Shown one piece after another: positions 36,573-45,292 of a stretch of DNA of 64,000 nucleotides. The position numbers and the translations under genes were made by a program. The notes under the pieces were generated by a model. That model made no database searches. It worked only from the letters and a program-made list of their open reading frames with translations, and had not been told where the DNA came from. Positions within the stretch are counted from its first letter, which is position 1. Each line of letters begins with the position of its first letter. This DNA is from Salinispira sp. (GTDB taxonomy: Bacteria > Spirochaetota > Spirochaetia > DSM-27196 > Salinispiraceae): assembly GCA_965226555.1 (NCBI GenBank), contig CBDDDG010000001.1, forward strand, positions 64,001-128,000. Reading direction: 5' to 3'.

Positions 36573-37948
36573 ATCATGCTCCTCGGGTCAAGAATTGAAT
36601 TGAGTTCATCTTCACTGATAATTTTCTCTTCAAGAACAAGATCGCGAATTTTTTTCTTCTCCCTGTATGCCCGGTAGGCCAGCGTACTCGCCCGATCATA
36701 GCCGATTTTCACAGCCAGCGGAGTAACCATGGCGAGGCTCCAGTCTATCCAGTAACGGCAGCGTTCGCTGTCGGCCGCGGCGCCGCGAATGGCCTTGTCG
36801 GCCAGTGTGTTGCAGGCCTTTGTGAGTATGGTAATGGAGCTCAGCACTTCATAGGCTATGAGGGGGTTCATCATGTTCAGTTCGAGAGGCGCGTTCTGTC
36901 CTCCCATGGTAACGGAAATGACCTTACCGTGAACATGGGCAGCAACCTGAATGATCATTTCCGGAATAACAGGGTTCACCTTCCCGGGCATAATGGAGCT
37001 GCCGGGCTGAAGGCTGGGAAGAAGAATTTCACCGAGGGCGCCGCGGGGACCGCTGGCAAGAAGGCGCAGATCGTTGGCAATTTTCATAAGCGATGTTGCA
37101 AGAACATTCACTGCCCCCATAAATGCTACCTGAGCGTCTCGGGCGGCAATGCCTTCAAACTTGTTAGCGGCAGGAACAAAGCCTATGCCGGTATCGGCGG
37201 CAATGCCGGAAATTGCGCGGTCGGCAAAGTCCGGGTGAGTGTTCAGACCCGTACCAATTGCCGTACCGCCGAGGGGAAGTTCTTCCATGTCAGCAAAGCT
37301 GTTGCGGATGCGCGCCGCGGCCTTTTGAATTTGCAGGGCGTACACAGCAAATTCCTGACCGAGGGACATGGGTACGGCGTCCTGAAGGTGGGTTCGCCCG
37401 AGTTTGAGTACCTCGGAAAATTCATCGGCCTTTGCCGTGAAGGCATCGGCGAGGTTGGTAAGTGAGGCGAGCAGGCCATCCGCTTCAACGCGGTTGGAAA
37501 TGTGCAGGGCTGCGGGGATAACGTCGTTTGAGCTTTGTCCGCGGTTGACGTGATCATTCGGATGTACGGGTTTCCGCATGCCGATGGGTTCGCCGAGAAT
37601 TTCATTTGCGCGGTTGGCGATGACTTCGTTCGCGTTCATATTGCTGCTGGTGCCGCTGCCGGTCTGAAACACATCAACCGGAAAATGGTCATTCCATTTT
37701 CCCTCATACACCTCTGTTGCGGCCTGTATAATGGCCTCCGCACGTTCCGGCTCCAGAAGTCCGAGCTCCCGGTTCGCAGCGGCGGCATTCTTCTTAATGA
37801 GGGCGATTGCCTGAATCATTGCCGACGGCAGGACAATGCCCGATATCCTGAAATTCTCTACAGCCCGCTGTGTCTGCGCGCCCCAATAGGCCCATGCGGG
37901 AATTTCAATATCTCCCATGCTGTCTGACTCAATTCTTTTTTCATTCAT
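36569..37948 (-). CDS. fumC: Class II fumarate hydratase
   Basis: QTGSGTSSNMN, GRTHLQDA, GSSIMPGKVNP. Confidence 0.93.
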   Translation of the reverse strand: MNEKRIESDSMGDIEIPAWAYWGAQTQRAVENFRISGIVLPSAMIQAIALIKKNAAAANRELGLLEPERAEAIIQAATEVYEGKWNDHFPVDVFQTGSGTSSNMNANEVIANRANEILGEPIGMRKPVHPNDHVNRGQSSNDVIPAALHISNRVEADGLLASLTNLADAFTAKADEFSEVLKLGRTHLQDAVPMSLGQEFAVYALQIQKAAARIRNSFADMEELPLGGTAIGTGLNTHPDFADRAISGIAADTGIGFVPAANKFEGIAARDAQVAFMGAVNVLATSLMKIANDLRLLASGPRGALGEILLPSLQPGSSIMPGKVNPVIPEMIIQVAAHVHGKVISVTMGGQNAPLELNMMNPLIAYEVLSSITILTKACNTLADKAIRGAAADSERCRYWIDWSLAMVTPLAVKIGYDRASTLAYRAYREKKKIRDLVLEEKIISEDELNSILDPRSMI

Positions 37949-38863
37949 AAAAATTTTTGCTCCTGAAAGTTTCCGCTATATGGCAAGCATTTCATATAGT
38001 TCTCCATAAATTCCCAATTCGGGTTGCCATCCTCATTATAAGGATATTTGCCTTCTCCGTACTCCTTTATTTCCTTCTTTGTAAAACTCTTTGAACCTTT
38101 TATTTCAAATAGATCTTTCAAACTAAAATACTGCCACTTATGAAGTGGAATAATGGGTGAGCCATGCCTTCTTAATGCTGTCCCATTTATTATCATAATT
38201 TGCCCTGCCTCCCACTTTCATATTATAAAAACCATCATTTTTCCAGTAGGCAAAATATGACTTGTACCCTTCTCTGTGTGGTTCCTTGGCTTTCATAACA
38301 ATTACACACGTTGTTGTACCTGCCTTTCATTAAATTACTTCTCCCATCGCCATGAATGTACATATTGGAGCATAGGAGCGAATAAATATCGTGTTGGAAT
38401 TCAACACCTACTATTTGACTTTGTTTAATGTGCCTTTCTTTTTCTTCATTGCCACCAGCATCTCTAATCATGTTTTTCATGGCAGATATTAAGAATCCAC
38501 CGGTACCCGTGCAGGTATCTAAAACCACAGAAGCCTTGTTCACATAGGCTATTTCAGAAAATAATTCTGTTATATGGGGAGGAGTCAAAACTATGCCCAA
38601 ACCTTTGTCGTTATTGGCACATCGTAAAAATTCTATATAAAACTGCCCGAGGGCATCGAAGTACTTATATTGTTATCATCGCCGCTAACAGCAATGGCAA
38701 GAACATCGTATTCTTTAGACAAAAAAGAGGCATAGAGCAAAACCCCATCGACAGCATAACTCCCATATTGTTTTCTATTCTGGCTTTCGTGTTGAGTTAC
38801 ACTGGCCTTACATTCAACAACAATGATTACATGTACATTTTCCGTTATTCTCTCGTTAGCCAT
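37945..38863 (-). pseudogene. Decayed restriction-modification locus (N6-adenine methylase/nuclease subunit plus specificity subunit; BcgI-like by resemblance)
   Basis: Fragments MANERITEN..VECKA..YAVDGVL; GLGIVLTPPHITELF, DTCTGTGGFL, NMYIHGDGRSN; WQYFSLKDLF...PNWEFMENYMK; far shorter than intact subunits. Confidence 0.8.
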
Positions 38864-38935
38864 TTATCTCCCTCTGCGCTGAATGGTCCACAAGAGAAAC
38901 TTTTGCAAAGCACAATTTTCAGTAGCAAAACTTTC

Positions 38936-38975
38936 CAAGAGTATAACAGAAACCTTCATTAATGCAAAAGTTTTT
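38936..38975 (-). promoter_or_regulatory. 40-bp direct repeat (left copy); promoter-like, facing the RM remnant
   Basis: 35/40 identical to 42467-42506; minus strand reads TTGCAT-N16-TATACT with a TG extended -10. Confidence 0.7.
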
Positions 38976-40119
38976 ATCTGAATTTTATTGATGATAAAAA
39001 CGATGCAGCCGATTCTAATCCTTTCCAGAAAAAGTCATTCTCATTAATATTGTGGAAAATAGTAGAAAAGTTCTTCATTAATTGACGCCTGTGATCTTTT
39101 TCCTTCTCTTTTTGGATGATTTTAACAGCTGGAGGATTATTTCTCAATGATACAGCGCGCAGAAAAATATCGCGAATATCAATATCGGAAACGGGGAGCG
39201 AATAGCCAATAAAGGTAATTTTATGAGCATTTTGAATTGCATGGAGTACCTCCGTTTGTATCGATTGAAAACTCCCAATAAATTTATGCTTATGAAAAGT
39301 TGGCGTTACAATAATCGGCTGCAATGCAACACTGCGCTTCGATAAAATTTGTCGATCCTCATCGGATTCAAAAAGAATTGGAATTTCTGTAGATTGCTGA
39401 GTATTCTGCCCTGTCGATTCTTGCAAAATTTCTTCTGATTTTTTATCTGAAAAACAATAGATGCACGTTTCATATTCTAGGGATTGAGAATCTACTCTGA
39501 ATAAACGCTCGCATGCCGGACACAATCGCCAATCGATGGAGCCATGAGGCTTGAGTACTGTTATTGGTTTTTGATTCGAATCGGTATCTGTTCCATTTTT
39601 CATTACTATTGGGATGGTATCTCCAAAATGAATATCATACTCATAATCTTGCTTGAGAAGCATTTCCAATAGCCAATCCCAATTCATGCTAATAAAGGTT
39701 ACCTGTACATTTTCTTGAATAATCTGACTCATTAATGAATGAAACGGGCTCGGATCAATATCATGGCTCATCTGTTCTGTTAAGAGAATGAGAATGAGTG
39801 AATTTAAAGACGTTTTAATTTCTAATAATTTTTGCGGAGTATAAGTTCCTAAATTTCTTTCTGCTGCAATTGCTGAATCAATACTGCTATAGACATCTTC
39901 CAATAATATCTGCTCCTCAATAGTTTGATTACCGTAAACTGCTCGCAAAAATTTCACAACATCATGTACTAAAGGAGCAGATTCAATGCTTACGCGTTCA
40001 CGAAAATCATCTGCCAGAATTTTAGTAAGCAATTGTTCCTGAAGAGGAAATCCCATCGCGCGGGAGAATCCGGCACCGATAATTACCGTGTGTGTTTTTG
40101 CTGGATGAGTTTTATCCAA
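38974..40119 (-). CDS. SIR2-like domain protein with Zn-ribbon insert
   Basis: IIGAGFS, SMNWDWLLE, KPHGSIDW, CPAC...CIYC, IVTPT, FIGYSLPVSD. Confidence 0.88.
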   Translation of the reverse strand: MDKTHPAKTHTVIIGAGFSRAMGFPLQEQLLTKILADDFRERVSIESAPLVHDVVKFLRAVYGNQTIEEQILLEDVYSSIDSAIAAERNLGTYTPQKLLEIKTSLNSLILILLTEQMSHDIDPSPFHSLMSQIIQENVQVTFISMNWDWLLEMLLKQDYEYDIHFGDTIPIVMKNGTDTDSNQKPITVLKPHGSIDWRLCPACERLFRVDSQSLEYETCIYCFSDKKSEEILQESTGQNTQQSTEIPILFESDEDRQILSKRSVALQPIIVTPTFHKHKFIGSFQSIQTEVLHAIQNAHKITFIGYSLPVSDIDIRDIFLRAVSLRNNPPAVKIIQKEKEKDHRRQLMKNFSTIFHNINENDFFWKGLESAASFLSSIKFR

Positions 40120-41417
40120 ATTTTTAGGTGCTCCGTAGATGTATATTCAGATTTTTTATTCCATTCAATGAAATCATGCAGGTTTTTCATATTGATCTTA
40201 TCCTCTACAATCTCAGAAATTTTATTCAACACAAAATGCACTTGATTATTCCACAATGTTTCAGATGTCGGCATGAGCTTTTCAGTATTGGGGATTGCTT
40301 TTCTCGCCCCATAATGTTCGGCAAAAACTGTTTGAGTAAATTTCCCTGGGGACAATATTTCATGGCATTTCAAGCAGCCGCACACTTTCTTAGTATAGGC
40401 TGAATCAAATTCCTTTCTCATTTGCAGAATTGCATCGACAATTTCAAACCTCATTCGCTGTTGCGCGTACGGCAAATAAAATTTGGCAGTCGGTAGTCCT
40501 CCTCCAACCGGCAATACGCTGCGATATTCTCCATAACCCGGCCCATGAGCAATACCATTCAGTCGTTTTTCTTTTTTCAAAAGCGTAGAAAACCCGCCTC
40601 CATATAAATTAATGACTTTTTTACCTTTATAGTTAAAATGTATGAGCAATTCCCGATACGCTTGCAGGTATTTTTCATTTTGAGAAGTCTCGTCAAAATT
40701 ATTAATCCACAACAGCAATGTGGAAATTTTTGATGTGGAATACACGTCCTTAATCTGCTTCATTTTATCTGGGTCTAATAAAACACTCTTTTCTACAATT
40801 ATCTCCAAAGCAGTCTCTATATCGTCATTTCTTGGATTTTTGTCATACTCTTGAATAATCGTTTTGTTTATTTTTAACGCTTTGTCAAAATCTGCAAGAG
40901 TCATGTATAAGCAGGGCAGTATTATAAATGTTGGTTTAGGAGAAATATCGGATTCTTCTTCGTAATCAGAATAACCTTTTTTTTCCATTGCTTCTTGGGA
41001 CAGGCTGTTTTGAATATAATGTGTTTGAAATTCCAGAACATTTTTCGTGAGGTCACTAATATTGGCTGCTATATCGGAGAATTGGAGGGCTTGCTTGGTT
41101 TTGATAATTTGTTGGCCTAAGCGACCAAAACGCTGCAGTAATTTCTCCATAGATTTCTTTAGAGTCATACTATCTGTGTTCGCGTAGTACTTCAGTGGGT
41201 CTATGGTGAGAACATACGTCATAGGATCAATAAAAAATGAACAGTTTCCGAATGTTATTGTGAGCATTTTGGCAATTGCCGCCGGCGTATGTACGGCAAC
41301 ATTGCCGTTTATTACGATTCCAGTTTTTTTCTGGGAAATATATTGTTTTATTAAAGGTTCCAAGAGAATTTTTTTCTCGTTGTGAGAACCGAATCGGATA
41401 AACTGTTCAGTTTTCAT
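40083..41417 (-). CDS. Uncharacterised ~444-aa protein with C-terminal CxCxxC...H motif (TGT-like fold suspected)
   Basis: FFIDPMTY, LYGGGFS, HGPGYGE..GGG...FYLP, VCGCLKC...VH; overlaps both neighbours. Confidence 0.7.
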   Translation of the reverse strand: MKTEQFIRFGSHNEKKILLEPLIKQYISQKKTGIVINGNVAVHTPAAIAKMLTITFGNCSFFIDPMTYVLTIDPLKYYANTDSMTLKKSMEKLLQRFGRLGQQIIKTKQALQFSDIAANISDLTKNVLEFQTHYIQNSLSQEAMEKKGYSDYEEESDISPKPTFIILPCLYMTLADFDKALKINKTIIQEYDKNPRNDDIETALEIIVEKSVLLDPDKMKQIKDVYSTSKISTLLLWINNFDETSQNEKYLQAYRELLIHFNYKGKKVINLYGGGFSTLLKKEKRLNGIAHGPGYGEYRSVLPVGGGLPTAKFYLPYAQQRMRFEIVDAILQMRKEFDSAYTKKVCGCLKCHEILSPGKFTQTVFAEHYGARKAIPNTEKLMPTSETLWNNQVHFVLNKISEIVEDKINMKNLHDFIEWNKKSEYTSTEHLKIWIKLIQQKHTR

Positions 41418-41847
41418 TATGCTGCCTGCATAATTTAATATCATCGAATATTTCTAAAAAATTCTTTCTTAAAAATTCATTATGCATTCTTGATTTTTTG
41501 TCGACAATCTTTTCTATTTCTTTCTTATCTTGATCCCAAATATAAAATGAGAGATCAAATTTGTTTATTTTTTCTTCAATTGTTGTTGTATTGCGCGGGA
41601 CAGTTGCCTTCGGCATAATGAGAATTGCCTTGTCGACAACACAGCTGTGATCCTTCAATTGTTCAATAGCTCTCTTCCAATTCTTTAGTTTTACTTCAAT
41701 AGAAATTAAGGAATTGTCCTTTTGCAAAAATATGTCTACAATACGCGACATGAGGGGAATTTCCCTATAAACCTTGTACGTTTTTCCGTCCAACGGTTCA
41801 TGGGTAAAATACCTAAGCAATTCCGTTTGAACTTTTGCCTCCGTCAC
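41407..41847 (-). CDS. Small PD-(D/E)XK nuclease-fold protein (146 aa)
   Basis: TEAKVQ...YREI...IVDIF...SIEVKLKNWKRAIEQ; GTG start overlaps the upstream TGA (GTGA), GGAG RBS. Confidence 0.72.
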   Translation of the reverse strand: MTEAKVQTELLRYFTHEPLDGKTYKVYREIPLMSRIVDIFLQKDNSLISIEVKLKNWKRAIEQLKDHSCVVDKAILIMPKATVPRNTTTIEEKINKFDLSFYIWDQDKKEIEKIVDKKSRMHNEFLRKNFLEIFDDIKLCRQHNEN

Positions 41848-42464
41848 AACGTATATTCTCCCAATACTTGGTTTTTTATTAATGAATTTTTCGTAGAATC
41901 GGGATATCGCGTGTAAACATAGTGCAGAATTGTCTGTAAGGTTTTGTGTATAATGCTTGTTTTGAATCGTACGAGAATTTCCCGTTGGGGTTCGGTTAAA
42001 TTTGTCCATGAAAACCATTTCTGAGGCGAGGTAATAACTTTCTTTCCTTCTCCGCTAAGCGTATATTTTTCAATTTCATGCGTATAATCATTAATCCCTA
42101 AATTATCATTTTCAAAACCCCTCATATTCGATTCCCAGACATCATCGGCTCTACCTATTTGAGAATAAGAAATGCTTATAGTAAGCATATGTTTCGCGTT
42201 TAAAAAATCCACTGCTTCCAACACGTCTGTGCTGAATGGTCCAAAATTATAGGCTTCAAAATCAAAAGAAGAAATATTGTCAGACGGATTCAGGAATTTC
42301 TGCTGTACTTCCTGCTCAAAAAGGTACATCATCTTCATTAATCGCGTTCTGCCAGTAATTGGATATGCGATATTTTGATCCAGATCGCCGTATAAGGTGA
42401 GATGCACCGGCGCATAAAGCAGCAGGTGTAAAATATGAACGCATTTATAATTTTTCTTCGGCAT
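41844..42464 (-). CDS. Panacea/SocA (DUF4065)/YwgA-like protein
   Basis: ITGRTRLMKMMYL, FDFEAYNFGPFS, YVYTRYP..S.IK motifs. Confidence 0.7.
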   Translation of the reverse strand: MPKKNYKCVHILHLLLYAPVHLTLYGDLDQNIAYPITGRTRLMKMMYLFEQEVQQKFLNPSDNISSFDFEAYNFGPFSTDVLEAVDFLNAKHMLTISISYSQIGRADDVWESNMRGFENDNLGINDYTHEIEKYTLSGEGKKVITSPQKWFSWTNLTEPQREILVRFKTSIIHKTLQTILHYVYTRYPDSTKNSLIKNQVLGEYTL

Positions 42465-42466
42465 GA

Positions 42467-42506
42467 CAAGAGTATATCAGAAACCTTTATTTATGCAAAC
42501 CTTTTT
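42467..42506 (-). promoter_or_regulatory. 40-bp direct repeat (right copy); probable leaderless promoter of the four-gene operon
   Basis: TTGCAT-N16-TATACT with TG extension, 6 nt before ATG 42464; no SD sequence. Confidence 0.7.
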
Positions 42507-42654
42507 GATACAGTCTTCTACCCACATAGCATTCACCCCGCATTCAAGAGCAATCCGACCTTACCATATTGTATTCATCATTAACAATGATAGCACTGGG
42601 ACGATATCGCCATACATGCCTTTTCTTTTGTTTTCCAAATGTATATACTGCGAT

Positions 42655-42724
42655 AAAACTTTGCTACTGAAAACTTTGTTACTGGAAATTGTGCAAGCAC
42701 AATTTTCCAATGCAAACGTTTCTA
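42655..42724. repeat. Family-A palindromic repeat
   Basis: ctggaaattgtgcaagcacaattttccaatgcaaacgtttct, directly upstream of the reductase RBS. Confidence 0.85.
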
Positions 42725-43955: not shown

Positions 43956-44594
43956 ATGAATTTTTCGAAAATAAGTATGTATTGTATCGGTATATTATCC
44001 GCATTATTCATCCTGTCCTGCGCCAGCATACCGCCCGAAGCAGTTGAGCTTTCAACAGCGGTGGAATCGCGAATTACTGAAACAAAGTCCATGCATCAAT
44101 CGCTGGTGAGAAGCTATTTCGATGCCCGATATGCTCTTGTTGACGATTATATGTATAATGAGTATGTGGACGACTATATTGAAAATATATTCAATAACCC
44201 TGCCATTCACGAAGCATGGAATGAGATCAGAACTGGTGAAAATGAGGAAGACAGAAACATGTTCTTCCGAGTTGTGACCCTGCGGCTCTTTCAGAATGTG
44301 CAGGATCAACGCAAGCAGCTTATATCTCCCATTCAAGAACGGGAAAACGAGTTATTGCAGGCATTAGACCAATACTATGGCGATACTCTGGCAGCTCATA
44401 GATACATTACAGACCTGTTGGCATCGGCGGCAGACCTCAATGCAACTCGTAATGAACTATTCGCCGACATTGTTGGCGAAACCCCCGATTTTTCAGGTAT
44501 TATTGATCAGATTAATCGGGCAAGCAACACGCTACGAGCTGGCGGAGAAAGCGCAGAAGAAGCATTGAACAAGACTTTGGAAATAATCCAGTAA
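43956..44594 (+). CDS. Hypothetical lipoprotein
   Basis: Signal peptide with lipobox ILS-C; helical mature part. Confidence 0.8.
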   Translation: MNFSKISMYCIGILSALFILSCASIPPEAVELSTAVESRITETKSMHQSLVRSYFDARYALVDDYMYNEYVDDYIENIFNNPAIHEAWNEIRTGENEEDRNMFFRVVTLRLFQNVQDQRKQLISPIQERENELLQALDQYYGDTLAAHRYITDLLASAADLNATRNELFADIVGETPDFSGIIDQINRASNTLRAGGESAEEALNKTLEIIQ

Positions 44595-44655
44595 CCATAA
44601 CAAAGTTTTGCTACTGGAAATTGTGCACGCACAATTTTCCAATGCAAAAGTTTCT
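44593..44655. repeat. Family-A palindromic repeat
   Basis: aaccataacaaagttttgctactggaaattgtgcacgcacaattttccaatgcaaaagtttct, abutting an AAGGAGG RBS. Confidence 0.88.
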
Positions 44656-44671
44656 AAGGAGGAAAAATTTT

Positions 44672-44932
44672 ATGGCAATTAATTGGAATAACGTAACGAA
44701 GGGAATAGATGAATCAAAACCAGATATTCCCTCCAGGATATCGTCCCTTACCCATTTCACCGACAAAGAGATTAGCTCATTGTTTCCTGCTGCGGGGGAT
44801 CAGAAGAATCTTGCCGATTTAATGGCGACGGTAAAGAATGCCACCAATGAAAATGCAAAGCAGAAGGCGATAATTGACAATGTAACGAAGTTTGCAAAAA
44901 CACTTGTCACCATTATTGATAAGGTGGTGTAA
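44672..44932 (+). CDS. Small hypothetical protein (86 aa)
   Basis: AAGGAGG RBS before ATG 44672. Confidence 0.7.
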   Translation: MAINWNNVTKGIDESKPDIPSRISSLTHFTDKEISSLFPAAGDQKNLADLMATVKNATNENAKQKAIIDNVTKFAKTLVTIIDKVV

Positions 44933-44935
44933 TTT

Positions 44936-45292
44936 ATGCTGAGTTTAATTATCGCTGAAGCAATAGTTTTTGTTTCAACAGTACTAATAGTGATTGCGGC
45001 CTACACAAGAGCTGGCAAAATGAATGATGAGCATTTACGAGGACTTGCCCTCCCGAGGGGAAGTGTTCGAGCCATTTTCACATTATGGCTGGTTGGGTCA
45101 TTTGCGGTTTTCACGTTATTTGGCGAGGAAGCAATGTCGAGTGTTGAGGCATATCAGCAGGGGTTATCTGCCCTCTCTGGAGTTACCGGATCGGTATTAG
45201 GTTTCTACTTTGGCGGACGCAGCGCAACCCCGCTCCCCGAGTCTGAAAAGAACCCCGCATCGAAAGCAGAACAGAATTCCATATCAACGTGA
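44936..45292 (+). CDS. Small 3-TM membrane protein
   Basis: Hydrophobic helices; GLALPRGSVRA and VLGFYFG motifs. Confidence 0.7.
   Translation: MLSLIIAEAIVFVSTVLIVIAAYTRAGKMNDEHLRGLALPRGSVRAIFTLWLVGSFAVFTLFGEEAMSSVEAYQQGLSALSGVTGSVLGFYFGGRSATPLPESEKNPASKAEQNSIST

Follow-up and report, generated by a model that had tools for sequence, protein, structure and literature searches.

Introduction

What does a protein carrying the zinc motif of tRNA-guanine transglycosylases (TGTs) do inside a genomic island, next to a small nuclease gene? The question is raised by 64,000 nucleotides (nt) of DNA from Salinispira sp. (assembly GCA_965226555.1, contig CBDDDG010000001.1, positions 64,001 to 128,000 of the forward strand; the whole stretch is called the window below). 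In this window, an earlier note had singled out an orphan protein of 444 amino acids (aa), suggesting a divergent TGT-fold enzyme or sensor whose pairing with the nuclease gene loosely recalls sce7725/sce7726 pairs. We found that the protein belongs to a large family and that its gene forms a recurrent cassette with genes encoding a Panacea-like protein, a small nuclease-fold protein, and one effector, either a SIR2-like or a membrane protein. The best overall explanation, to which we give about an even chance of being correct as a whole, is that the TGT-fold protein acts as a guard in an abortive-infection cassette with a swappable suicide effector.

A widespread family with a predicted zinc site

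The protein and its putative metal ligands map to the window as follows.

40083..41417, minus strand: TGT-fold zinc protein, single open frame of 444 aa (main finding)
40365..40382, minus strand: CxCxxC, predicted zinc ligands C346 (149/150 members), C348 (144/150), and C351 (149/150)
40236..40238, minus strand: H394, predicted fourth zinc ligand (150/150 members)

All the motifs described at the outset, VCGCLKC and HGPGYGE..GGG..FYLP, were located in this minus-strand frame (HGPGYGE at residues 291-297, followed by VGGGLP, FYLP, and VCGCLKC). A contig of sequencing run X1, possibly the source sample, spans 37500-42704 with zero letter differences. The protein is not the orphan it had been taken for: a word search gave 13 relatives, and a profile built from these gave 1,024 cluster representatives (50% clustering, E<=0.001), 533 of which reach E<=1e-30; only a named family is missing. 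The family is widespread, spans many phyla, has more than 1,000 members, and is unnamed. Its members are 430-480 aa long, with a mean column identity of ~26%. Conservation is given here for an alignment of 150 proteins, comprising 14 from the word search and 136 near-full-length sequences among the 150 listed profile matches; since its rows are the best-scoring members, the counts lean high.

The four putative zinc ligands occur jointly in 144/150 aligned members. The CxCxxC motif was present in 36/38 family open reading frames (ORFs) compared with 1/514 other ORFs at the same loci, and is therefore not due to chance. A conserved downstream histidine, as proposed earlier, also exists, although it is neither of the two nearer candidates: H352 and H368 are not conserved, whereas H394, 43 residues past C351, is invariant. 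The corresponding spacing in Z. mobilis TGT, counted on the sequence, is 26 residues.

Searches of Pfam, NCBIfam, and PADLOC with the 444-aa protein gave nothing above the cut-off, and neither did the same collections for 74 members, none of which (0/74) matched TGT, DpdA, or Beta_protein profiles at E<=0.1. A phage-fibre Fn3 match in 6/74 members (best E 5.5e-6) was taken as a chance match of the Cys region. Sequence searches of the PDB with the 444-aa protein returned nothing significant, and the ESM Atlas returned 30 unnamed clusters (up to 0.96) and no named match. No relative was found in a phage collection or, in a pattern-limited search, in IMG/VR, and no longer fused form among proteins of 841-2400 aa, the latter being weak evidence.

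Predicted fold and active site

The structure was modeled by AlphaFold2 on the 150-protein alignment (pLDDT 93.7, pTM 0.92 for the 444-aa protein), giving a barrel of eight strands, the last of them followed by a hairpin, and a helical subdomain that carries the Cys/His set. The top Foldseek match is a TGT (E=5e-4, TM-score ~0.45). In a wide VIA-align search of 48,161 chains, the first five places were taken by archaeal TGT (Z 19.7, 297 aligned residues, root-mean-square deviation 3.5), bacterial TGT (Z 17.0), QTRT2 (Z 15.4), DpdA (Z 14.4), and Cap10 (Z 13.4), followed by glycosidases and unrelated barrels at Z <=12.7; the DpdA and Cap10 scores barely exceed this general barrel level. No solved beta structure stood among the best 50 rows. 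Sequence identity to TGT/DpdA is 6-12%. From the model, the family is predicted to share the TGT barrel fold and zinc site. The earlier proposal of a TGT-like fold is borne out by this (beta/alpha)8 barrel with a zinc subdomain, whose best structural matches are TGT-family proteins, and the two properties on which that proposal had been staked, a TIM barrel and conserved Cys/His residues, both held (in the model and in 144/150 members, respectively).

Two features of the predicted active site map as follows.

41226..41228, minus strand: D64, end of strand 3, putatively equivalent to the acid/base Asp in the DSGG motif of TGT (DpdA Asp95), 146/150 members
40491..40547, minus strand: H291-G-x-x-Y-G-E-x-R...P-V-G-G-G-x-P309, end of strand 8 and the following loop, family signature replacing the TGT nucleophile motif FDCV (150-protein alignment)

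By strand order in the model, strand 2, ILGNTYHL in TGT, corresponds to INGNVA in the family, with N37 in 139/150 members; strand 3, LTDSGGYQ, corresponds to FIDPxT(H/Y), with an aromatic residue (H/Y/F) four positions past D64 in 148/150; and strand 7, YLMGVG, corresponds to NLYGG. At strand 4, MAFDEC is matched by LIAPYF: the family has P168-Y169-F170, and the guanine-reading Asp after this strand (DpdA Asp130) is missing, an Asp lying within 165-171 in only 2/150 members. At strand 8, DMFDCV is matched by GIAHG, and in place of the nucleophile Asp (DpdA Asp256) no D/E was found at 288-292 in 150/150 rows; depending on the register, the nucleophile position would be held by C/S/A/G or H291. 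The signature that follows is strongly conserved (H291 in 140, E297 in 148, R/K299 in 150, P303 in 148, and G307 in 145 of 150 members). Since the loci described below were found via the HGxxYGE pattern, its invariance at those loci is circular, and only the alignment counts are used. The residues fixed in the family comprise E/D14, K87, Q131, W237, E243, H291, E297, R/K299, K/R312, and PVGGGxP.

The model thus suggests that the base-binding pocket is likely kept and that classical base exchange is likely lost; the latter is unlikely to proceed in its canonical form because strand 8 lacks an Asp in 150/150 rows. The description as a divergent TGT-fold enzyme or sensor can stand with this restriction, and a search for conserved catalytic Asp residues, advised in the earlier note, recovered the one on strand 3 and neither of the other two. 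In DpdA, three Asp residues are invariant, also in TGT, and two were shown to be essential (PMC10164549), and Cap10 is described as retaining D73, D122, and the catalytic D248 (bioRxiv 10.1101/2025.04.06.647259). The pocket residues are identical between family members accompanied by a SIR2 effector and those accompanied by a membrane effector, so the pocket ligand should be independent of the effector.

A four-gene cassette with either of two effectors

In the window, the three partners of the TGT-fold gene are as follows.

41844..42464, minus strand: Panacea/SocA-like winged-helix protein, 206 aa, putative antitoxin (Pfam SocA_Panacea; fold nearest the DarG C-terminal domain)
41407..41847, minus strand: small PD-(D/E)xK nuclease-fold protein, 146 aa, whose GTG start overlaps the Panacea stop (database call P0254, likewise 146 aa)
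38974..40119, minus strand: SIR2-like effector of 381 aa and predicted NADase; overlaps the TGT-fold gene at the end of the latter

We compared 37 genome loci, 80 metagenome loci (of 91 confirmed), one plasmid, and the window, which were reduced to 102 loci at 90% identity. Among the 51 non-redundant loci that are well flanked (>=2.2 kb upstream and >=2.7 kb downstream), the Panacea-like and small nuclease genes are present in every case, accompanied by a single effector, which is SIR2 at 33 loci and a membrane protein at 18; both effectors together were found in 0/102 loci. The nuclease gene noticed earlier is therefore a genuine companion, but the unit is a set of four genes, with the Panacea-like protein and the swappable SIR2 or membrane effector, rather than a pair. 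Three gene orders recur among the loci. In a quick IQ-TREE analysis of 83 rows, with 19 others excluded as short, hybrid, or unlabelled, the effector label switches four times, with at least two switches forced by well-supported branches. The four-gene plan is unnamed by Pfam, NCBIfam, and PADLOC 2.0, and a literature search, with most subscription papers outside its scope, found no description of this gene set. Correlation of the distance matrices of the three core proteins (0.60-0.77) was considered as a sign of binding and set aside, as it shows shared descent only.

The Panacea-like protein matches PF13274 below the cut-off (E=0.0012; 20.2 bits against 25.7), and a partial PDC-M19A match was obtained for 35/35 Panacea-like partners. 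Its model is placed by Foldseek closest to the DarG C-terminal domain 7YK3 (probability 0.99, TM-score 0.44-0.49, E 0.02) and also resembles winged-helix proteins (E 0.01-0.02). It has an acidic loop, with a net charge of -7 to -15 in 40 residues; the DarG C-terminal domain blocks DarT via mimicry of single-stranded DNA (ssDNA) (PMC11481870). In the nuclease, E3, D38, E51, K53, and Q63 are invariant in 74/74 sequences, from which the PD-(D/E)xK site is predicted to be intact; the protein is ~145 aa long, without a specificity domain, and is encoded co-directionally in 50/51 loci. The window SIR2 gene (38974..40119) matches Pfam SIR2_2 (E=6e-7) and PADLOC SIR2 (E=3.5e-13), and the GAGxS, NWD, and HGS motifs are present in 48/48 full-length SIR2 partners, so that, judged by these motifs, an intact NADase site is predicted. 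The membrane effector is 165-200 aa long, with two or three hydrophobic helices by hydropathy; one cassette of this type, L017, comes from Pseudomonas cuatrocienegasensis. No recognised ligand-binding or sensor domain was found in the window SIR2 protein (Pfam scan) or in the membrane type (hydropathy).

Broken genes were surveyed at 101 loci. The TGT-fold gene is internally broken at two of them (L001 and L020 in our numbering), and SIR2 is disabled at both; SIR2 is broken beside an intact TGT-fold gene at two others (L019 and L105), and a cut nuclease lies beside an intact membrane effector at L018. A candidate natural TGT-fold/SIR2 fusion at L001:4067-5908 was rejected as an in-frame deletion hybrid, joining residues ~1-325 of the TGT-fold protein to the C-terminal part of SIR2, which lacks the zinc site as well as the GAG motif from the N-terminal part of SIR2.

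Two loci are of separate interest. At L123:4028-7649, the Panacea and nuclease genes are inverted and convergent with the TGT-fold and SIR2 genes, like cII in phage P4; upstream, on the opposite strand, lies an 863-aa gene that by eye resembles PglZ of BREX. Arthrobacter plasmid pSI-1 (L072:1811-4639) carries the same four-gene plan with a membrane effector, adjoining a relaxase; its TGT-fold protein is a distant member without CxCxxC, and possibly represents a step towards the zinc-less beta proteins.

Defence genes in the neighborhood

The 117 nearest neighbours at 35 genome loci were scanned with PADLOC. Matches at E<=1e-8 were obtained for 23/117 neighbours and at E<1e-30 for 16/117; without one ABC transporter, strong defence matches amount to 15/117 neighbours at 9/35 loci. 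A control of 99 genes, namely 47 window genes and 52 genes beside the housekeeping tgt (one repeat protein excluded), gave four weak and no strong matches. In two cases, the whole cassette is nested in a defence operon: between brxC and pglX of a BREX operon (L008:1193-13284) and within a type III restriction-modification (R-M) operon (L013:2959-16081). No queuosine-pathway gene was found among the 117 neighbours, which include one DndB/DpdB-like gene (at L031), and the host genome (93.5% complete) gave no match to QueC/QueD. The host carries its own canonical tgt (L038:1501-2565; G000:C21:382382-383446). This housekeeping gene keeps DSGG and DCV, and the CxCxxC zinc motif is missing from its product.

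A proposed guard in a probable abortive-infection cassette, and the alternatives

A fixed core combined with either a SIR2 or a membrane effector is a mark of abortive-infection systems. We consider it very probable that the four-gene cassette is a defence system and, if it is, somewhat more probable than the reverse that the TGT-fold protein is the guard that holds the effector off. The defence genes among the neighbours and the patchy, mobile distribution (none of 60 relatives, low GC, a plasmid copy) agree with a defence role. With no recognised sensor domain in either effector, control must lie with the core. The TGT-fold protein retains a putative nucleobase sandwich (H/Y68, Y272) and the strand-3 Asp, and has a new invariant polar set (E/D14, K87, E243, H291, E297, R299). 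In the proposed mechanism, this enzyme would act on a nucleotide or nucleic-acid substrate to yield an inhibitory product or mark, which together with the Panacea-like antitoxin would hold the effector down. A phage protein or phage DNA would block the enzyme or drain its substrate, by analogy with P4 beta and TIM-B, and the effector would be freed; SIR2 would then deplete NAD+, or the membrane protein would depolarise the cell, which would die before the phage completes its cycle. The nuclease may be a second effector or an accessory. The disabling of SIR2 at both loci with a broken TGT-fold gene lends weak support to the guard. The analogy comes from phage P4, in which gop is toxic without beta and gop-beta-cII protects against lambda and P1 (PMC9122126), and from a preprint in which beta (TIM-B, PF14350) is placed in the TGT superfamily, with restriction endonuclease (REase), sirtuin, and two-transmembrane (2TM) effectors, and TIM-B is proposed to be a constitutive negative regulator acting via a soluble product or covalent mark (bioRxiv 10.64898/2026.10.19.760177).

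Several observations weigh against a guard of this kind. The guard model proposed for TIM-B is a prediction too, and the Panacea-like protein might account for the whole of the neutralisation, in which case the TGT-fold protein could serve as a sensor. The Panacea gene was broken at 0/101 loci, and the decay pattern of the other genes comes from two and two loci, which may include assembly errors. The neighborhood control was not taxon-matched, and 26/35 genome loci have no strong defence match among the nearest neighbours. None of the 74 members (0/74) match PF14350 or the sce7725 profile (E<=0.1), and HHalign gave non-significant values of P=0.27 against six beta proteins, a shallow alignment, and P=0.48 against 26 bacterial TGTs. 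The residue correspondences to TGT are putative, being drawn from strand order in the model and from motifs. Finally, four positions that are conserved elsewhere in the family are altered in the window copy (F70L, Y169C, F170L, W180A), which lies on a long tree branch and may therefore be drifting.

The strongest rival, which we regard as rather unlikely, makes the TGT-fold protein a sensor or activator: it would read an infection cue, such as a modified or damaged base or a nuclease-made fragment, and displace the Panacea-like antitoxin, thereby switching the effector on. Such a role would suit a protein that lost its nucleophile and kept the base sandwich and strand-3 Asp, in a cassette that already contains a dedicated antitoxin-like gene in 51/51 loci. 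Panacea is reported to neutralise unrelated toxins directly (PMC10440598), and the dead pyrophosphatase KomB, which switches on the SIR2 protein KomC, is a precedent (PMC13434031). However, so many invariant charged residues at ~26% mean column identity look more like catalysis than binding alone, SIR2 was also lost at both loci with a broken TGT-fold gene, and the structural relative beta is described as a negative regulator in the TIM-B preprint.

It is improbable that the cassette works in the manner of an R-M system, in which the TGT-fold protein would modify or excise a DNA base (as a Dpd-like self mark, or as a glycosylase for modified phage bases), the nuclease would cut, and Panacea and the effector would form a back-up suicide pair. 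The TGT/DpdA fold, the intact PD-(D/E)xK site, and the nesting in R-M and BREX operons speak for it, and a partner acting on DNA would go well with the Panacea-like protein, given its acidic loop and its resemblance to the DarG C-terminal domain, a mimic of ssDNA (PMC11481870). Yet the three Asp residues described as invariant in TGT/DpdA (PMC10164549) are not all retained, with the strand-8 Asp in none of 150 members and an Asp near strand 4 in 2/150; queuosine genes are missing from the 117 neighbours, as are QueC/QueD matches from the 93.5%-complete host genome; and the 146-aa nuclease has no specificity domain.

Still less probable is a selfish addiction module, in which several toxin-antitoxin genes would serve to stabilise the cassette alone and have no anti-phage role; its mobility, direct-repeat boundaries, and plasmid copy, and the lack of a defence neighbour at most loci, would agree with this, but the persistence of the four-gene set in many phyla, with either SIR2 or a membrane protein, the usual abortive-infection effectors, and the enrichment of defence genes over the control argue against it. 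An ordinary tRNA/DNA-guanine transglycosylase of unusual sequence is very improbable, as the fold and zinc site that favor it are set against an incomplete catalytic Asp set, 0/74 matches to TGT/DpdA profiles, and a canonical tgt elsewhere in the host.

Comparison with known systems

The guard reading draws most on the TIM-B, P4 gop-beta-cII, and sce7725/sce7726 systems, which, according to the preprint text, share with the present cassette a TGT-superfamily barrel, a small REase-fold gene, and swappable effectors including sirtuin and 2TM proteins. The likeness to sce7725/sce7726 suggested in the earlier note holds in this logic, with Beta_protein assigned to the TGT superfamily and REase, sirtuin, and 2TM partners named in the preprint, and does not extend to sequence membership: in its apparent mode of action the cassette resembles a TIM-B system, but by sequence it does not qualify as one. 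The CxCxxC...H set kept here is missing in 6/6 beta proteins compared, and the present proteins are longer (430-480 versus 324-383 aa). The partner also differs, being a Panacea-like gene in 51/51 loci instead of the metallopeptidase named in the preprint text. The nuclease of ~145 aa lacks the C-terminal helical extension of sce7726 proteins (188-221 aa) and is co-directional in 50/51 loci, in contrast to the convergent P4 form; HHalign against four sce7726 proteins brought the D..ExK..Q motifs into register, at P=0.53. The main text of the preprint (bioRxiv 10.64898/2026.10.19.760177) contains the word "zinc" nowhere and names PanA only with another effector. Judged from that main text, it is doubtful, though conceivable, that the preprint already includes the present family.

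With bacterial and archaeal TGTs, QTRT1/2, and DpdA, the family has in common the fold (Z 14.4-19.7), the zinc site, the strand-2 Asn, and the strand-3 Asp-x3-aromatic motif, whereas it lacks the strand-8 nucleophile Asp and the post-strand-4 guanine-reading Asp and has a longer spacer to the zinc His. In contrast to Dpd R-M systems, it has no fixed dpdB/dpdC partner and no adjoining queuosine genes. Cap10 of type IV CBASS is another case of a TGT fold recruited to phage defence (Z 13.4); it keeps D73, D122, and D248 and is described as working with a CD-NTase and the QueC-like Cap9 (bioRxiv 10.1101/2025.04.06.647259), whereas CD-NTase and Cap9 are absent from the present conserved gene set. 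PanTA and DarTG likewise have a stand-alone Panacea/DarG-C-terminal-like protein beside toxic effectors; the present cassette differs from them in having four genes instead of two, in lacking a macrodomain and an ADP-ribosyltransferase, and in its match below the Pfam cut-off. Kongming (KomABC) shares a SIR2 effector and a re-purposed nucleotide enzyme fold, but its folds are different (HAM1, deaminase), and the cited text describes no effector swap to a membrane protein and no Panacea partner (PMC13434031). BRC systems with a TGT are described with a different gene set (PMC12839542).

With a fixed four-gene plan and a family of this size and spread, the cassette is a candidate anti-phage system. 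Otherwise, the TGT fold is known in defence from DpdA and Cap10, which have the Asp set for base exchange, and from the beta protein, which has no zinc site. In the present family, the zinc site and half of the pocket appear to be kept, and the catalytic side to be rebuilt. What a beta-like guard makes or marks could now be approached via D64, H291, E297, R299, E243, and K87, together with measurements of NAD+ loss and membrane potential. More tentatively, and on balance unlikely, the family may be a zinc-keeping TGT branch in which the Asp nucleophile has been replaced by a His/Glu/Arg site that carries out a new nucleobase reaction. Its product, either a small nucleotide or a base mark placed on protein or nucleic acid, would be the on/off signal in an undescribed immune system and would be relayed via the DNA-mimicking Panacea-like protein to unrelated killers. 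If true, the family would connect TGT/DpdA with phage P4 beta as a missing link, and would offer the best access to gop-beta-cII chemistry.

Genomic setting of the window cassette

That the gene lies inside an island, as first noted, agrees with composition: the GC content of the cassette is 0.362 compared with 0.472 for the genome, and only 3/838 windows of 3.5 kb are as low. The cassette was not found in 60/60 related genomes searched. It is flanked as follows.

42467..42506, strand not assigned: upstream copy of a 40-nt direct repeat, next to the Panacea start codon
38936..38975, strand not assigned: downstream copy of this direct repeat (40 nt, 88% alike), where the cassette ends
37945..38863, minus strand: broken type IIG R-M remnant in several pieces (PADLOC REase_MTase_IIG, E=1.6e-25), with stops and frame changes

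Each repeat copy contains a promoter-like TTTGCA-17-TATACT on the minus strand, and in the upstream copy only a few bases separate the end of this site from the Panacea ATG; the sequence thus suggests a leaderless Panacea message. A reading of the 40-nt repeat as a unique target-site duplication was weakened by its resemblance to a genome-wide repeat family. Copies of a palindromic intergenic repeat of 40-55 nt, with hundreds of BLAST matches in the genome, flank the island at 38896-38935 and 42669-42722. A gap in cover at 39108-42323 in two runs of another study, in which the flanks are present at high identity, was not counted, as no contig joins across it with long sides.

At 43956-45292 lie three small genes (212, 103, and 118 aa) with no Pfam match above the cut-off, the first of which has a lipoprotein-like start. 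Related strains in two other sequencing runs have 285 extra letters at 38037, within the type IIG remnant.

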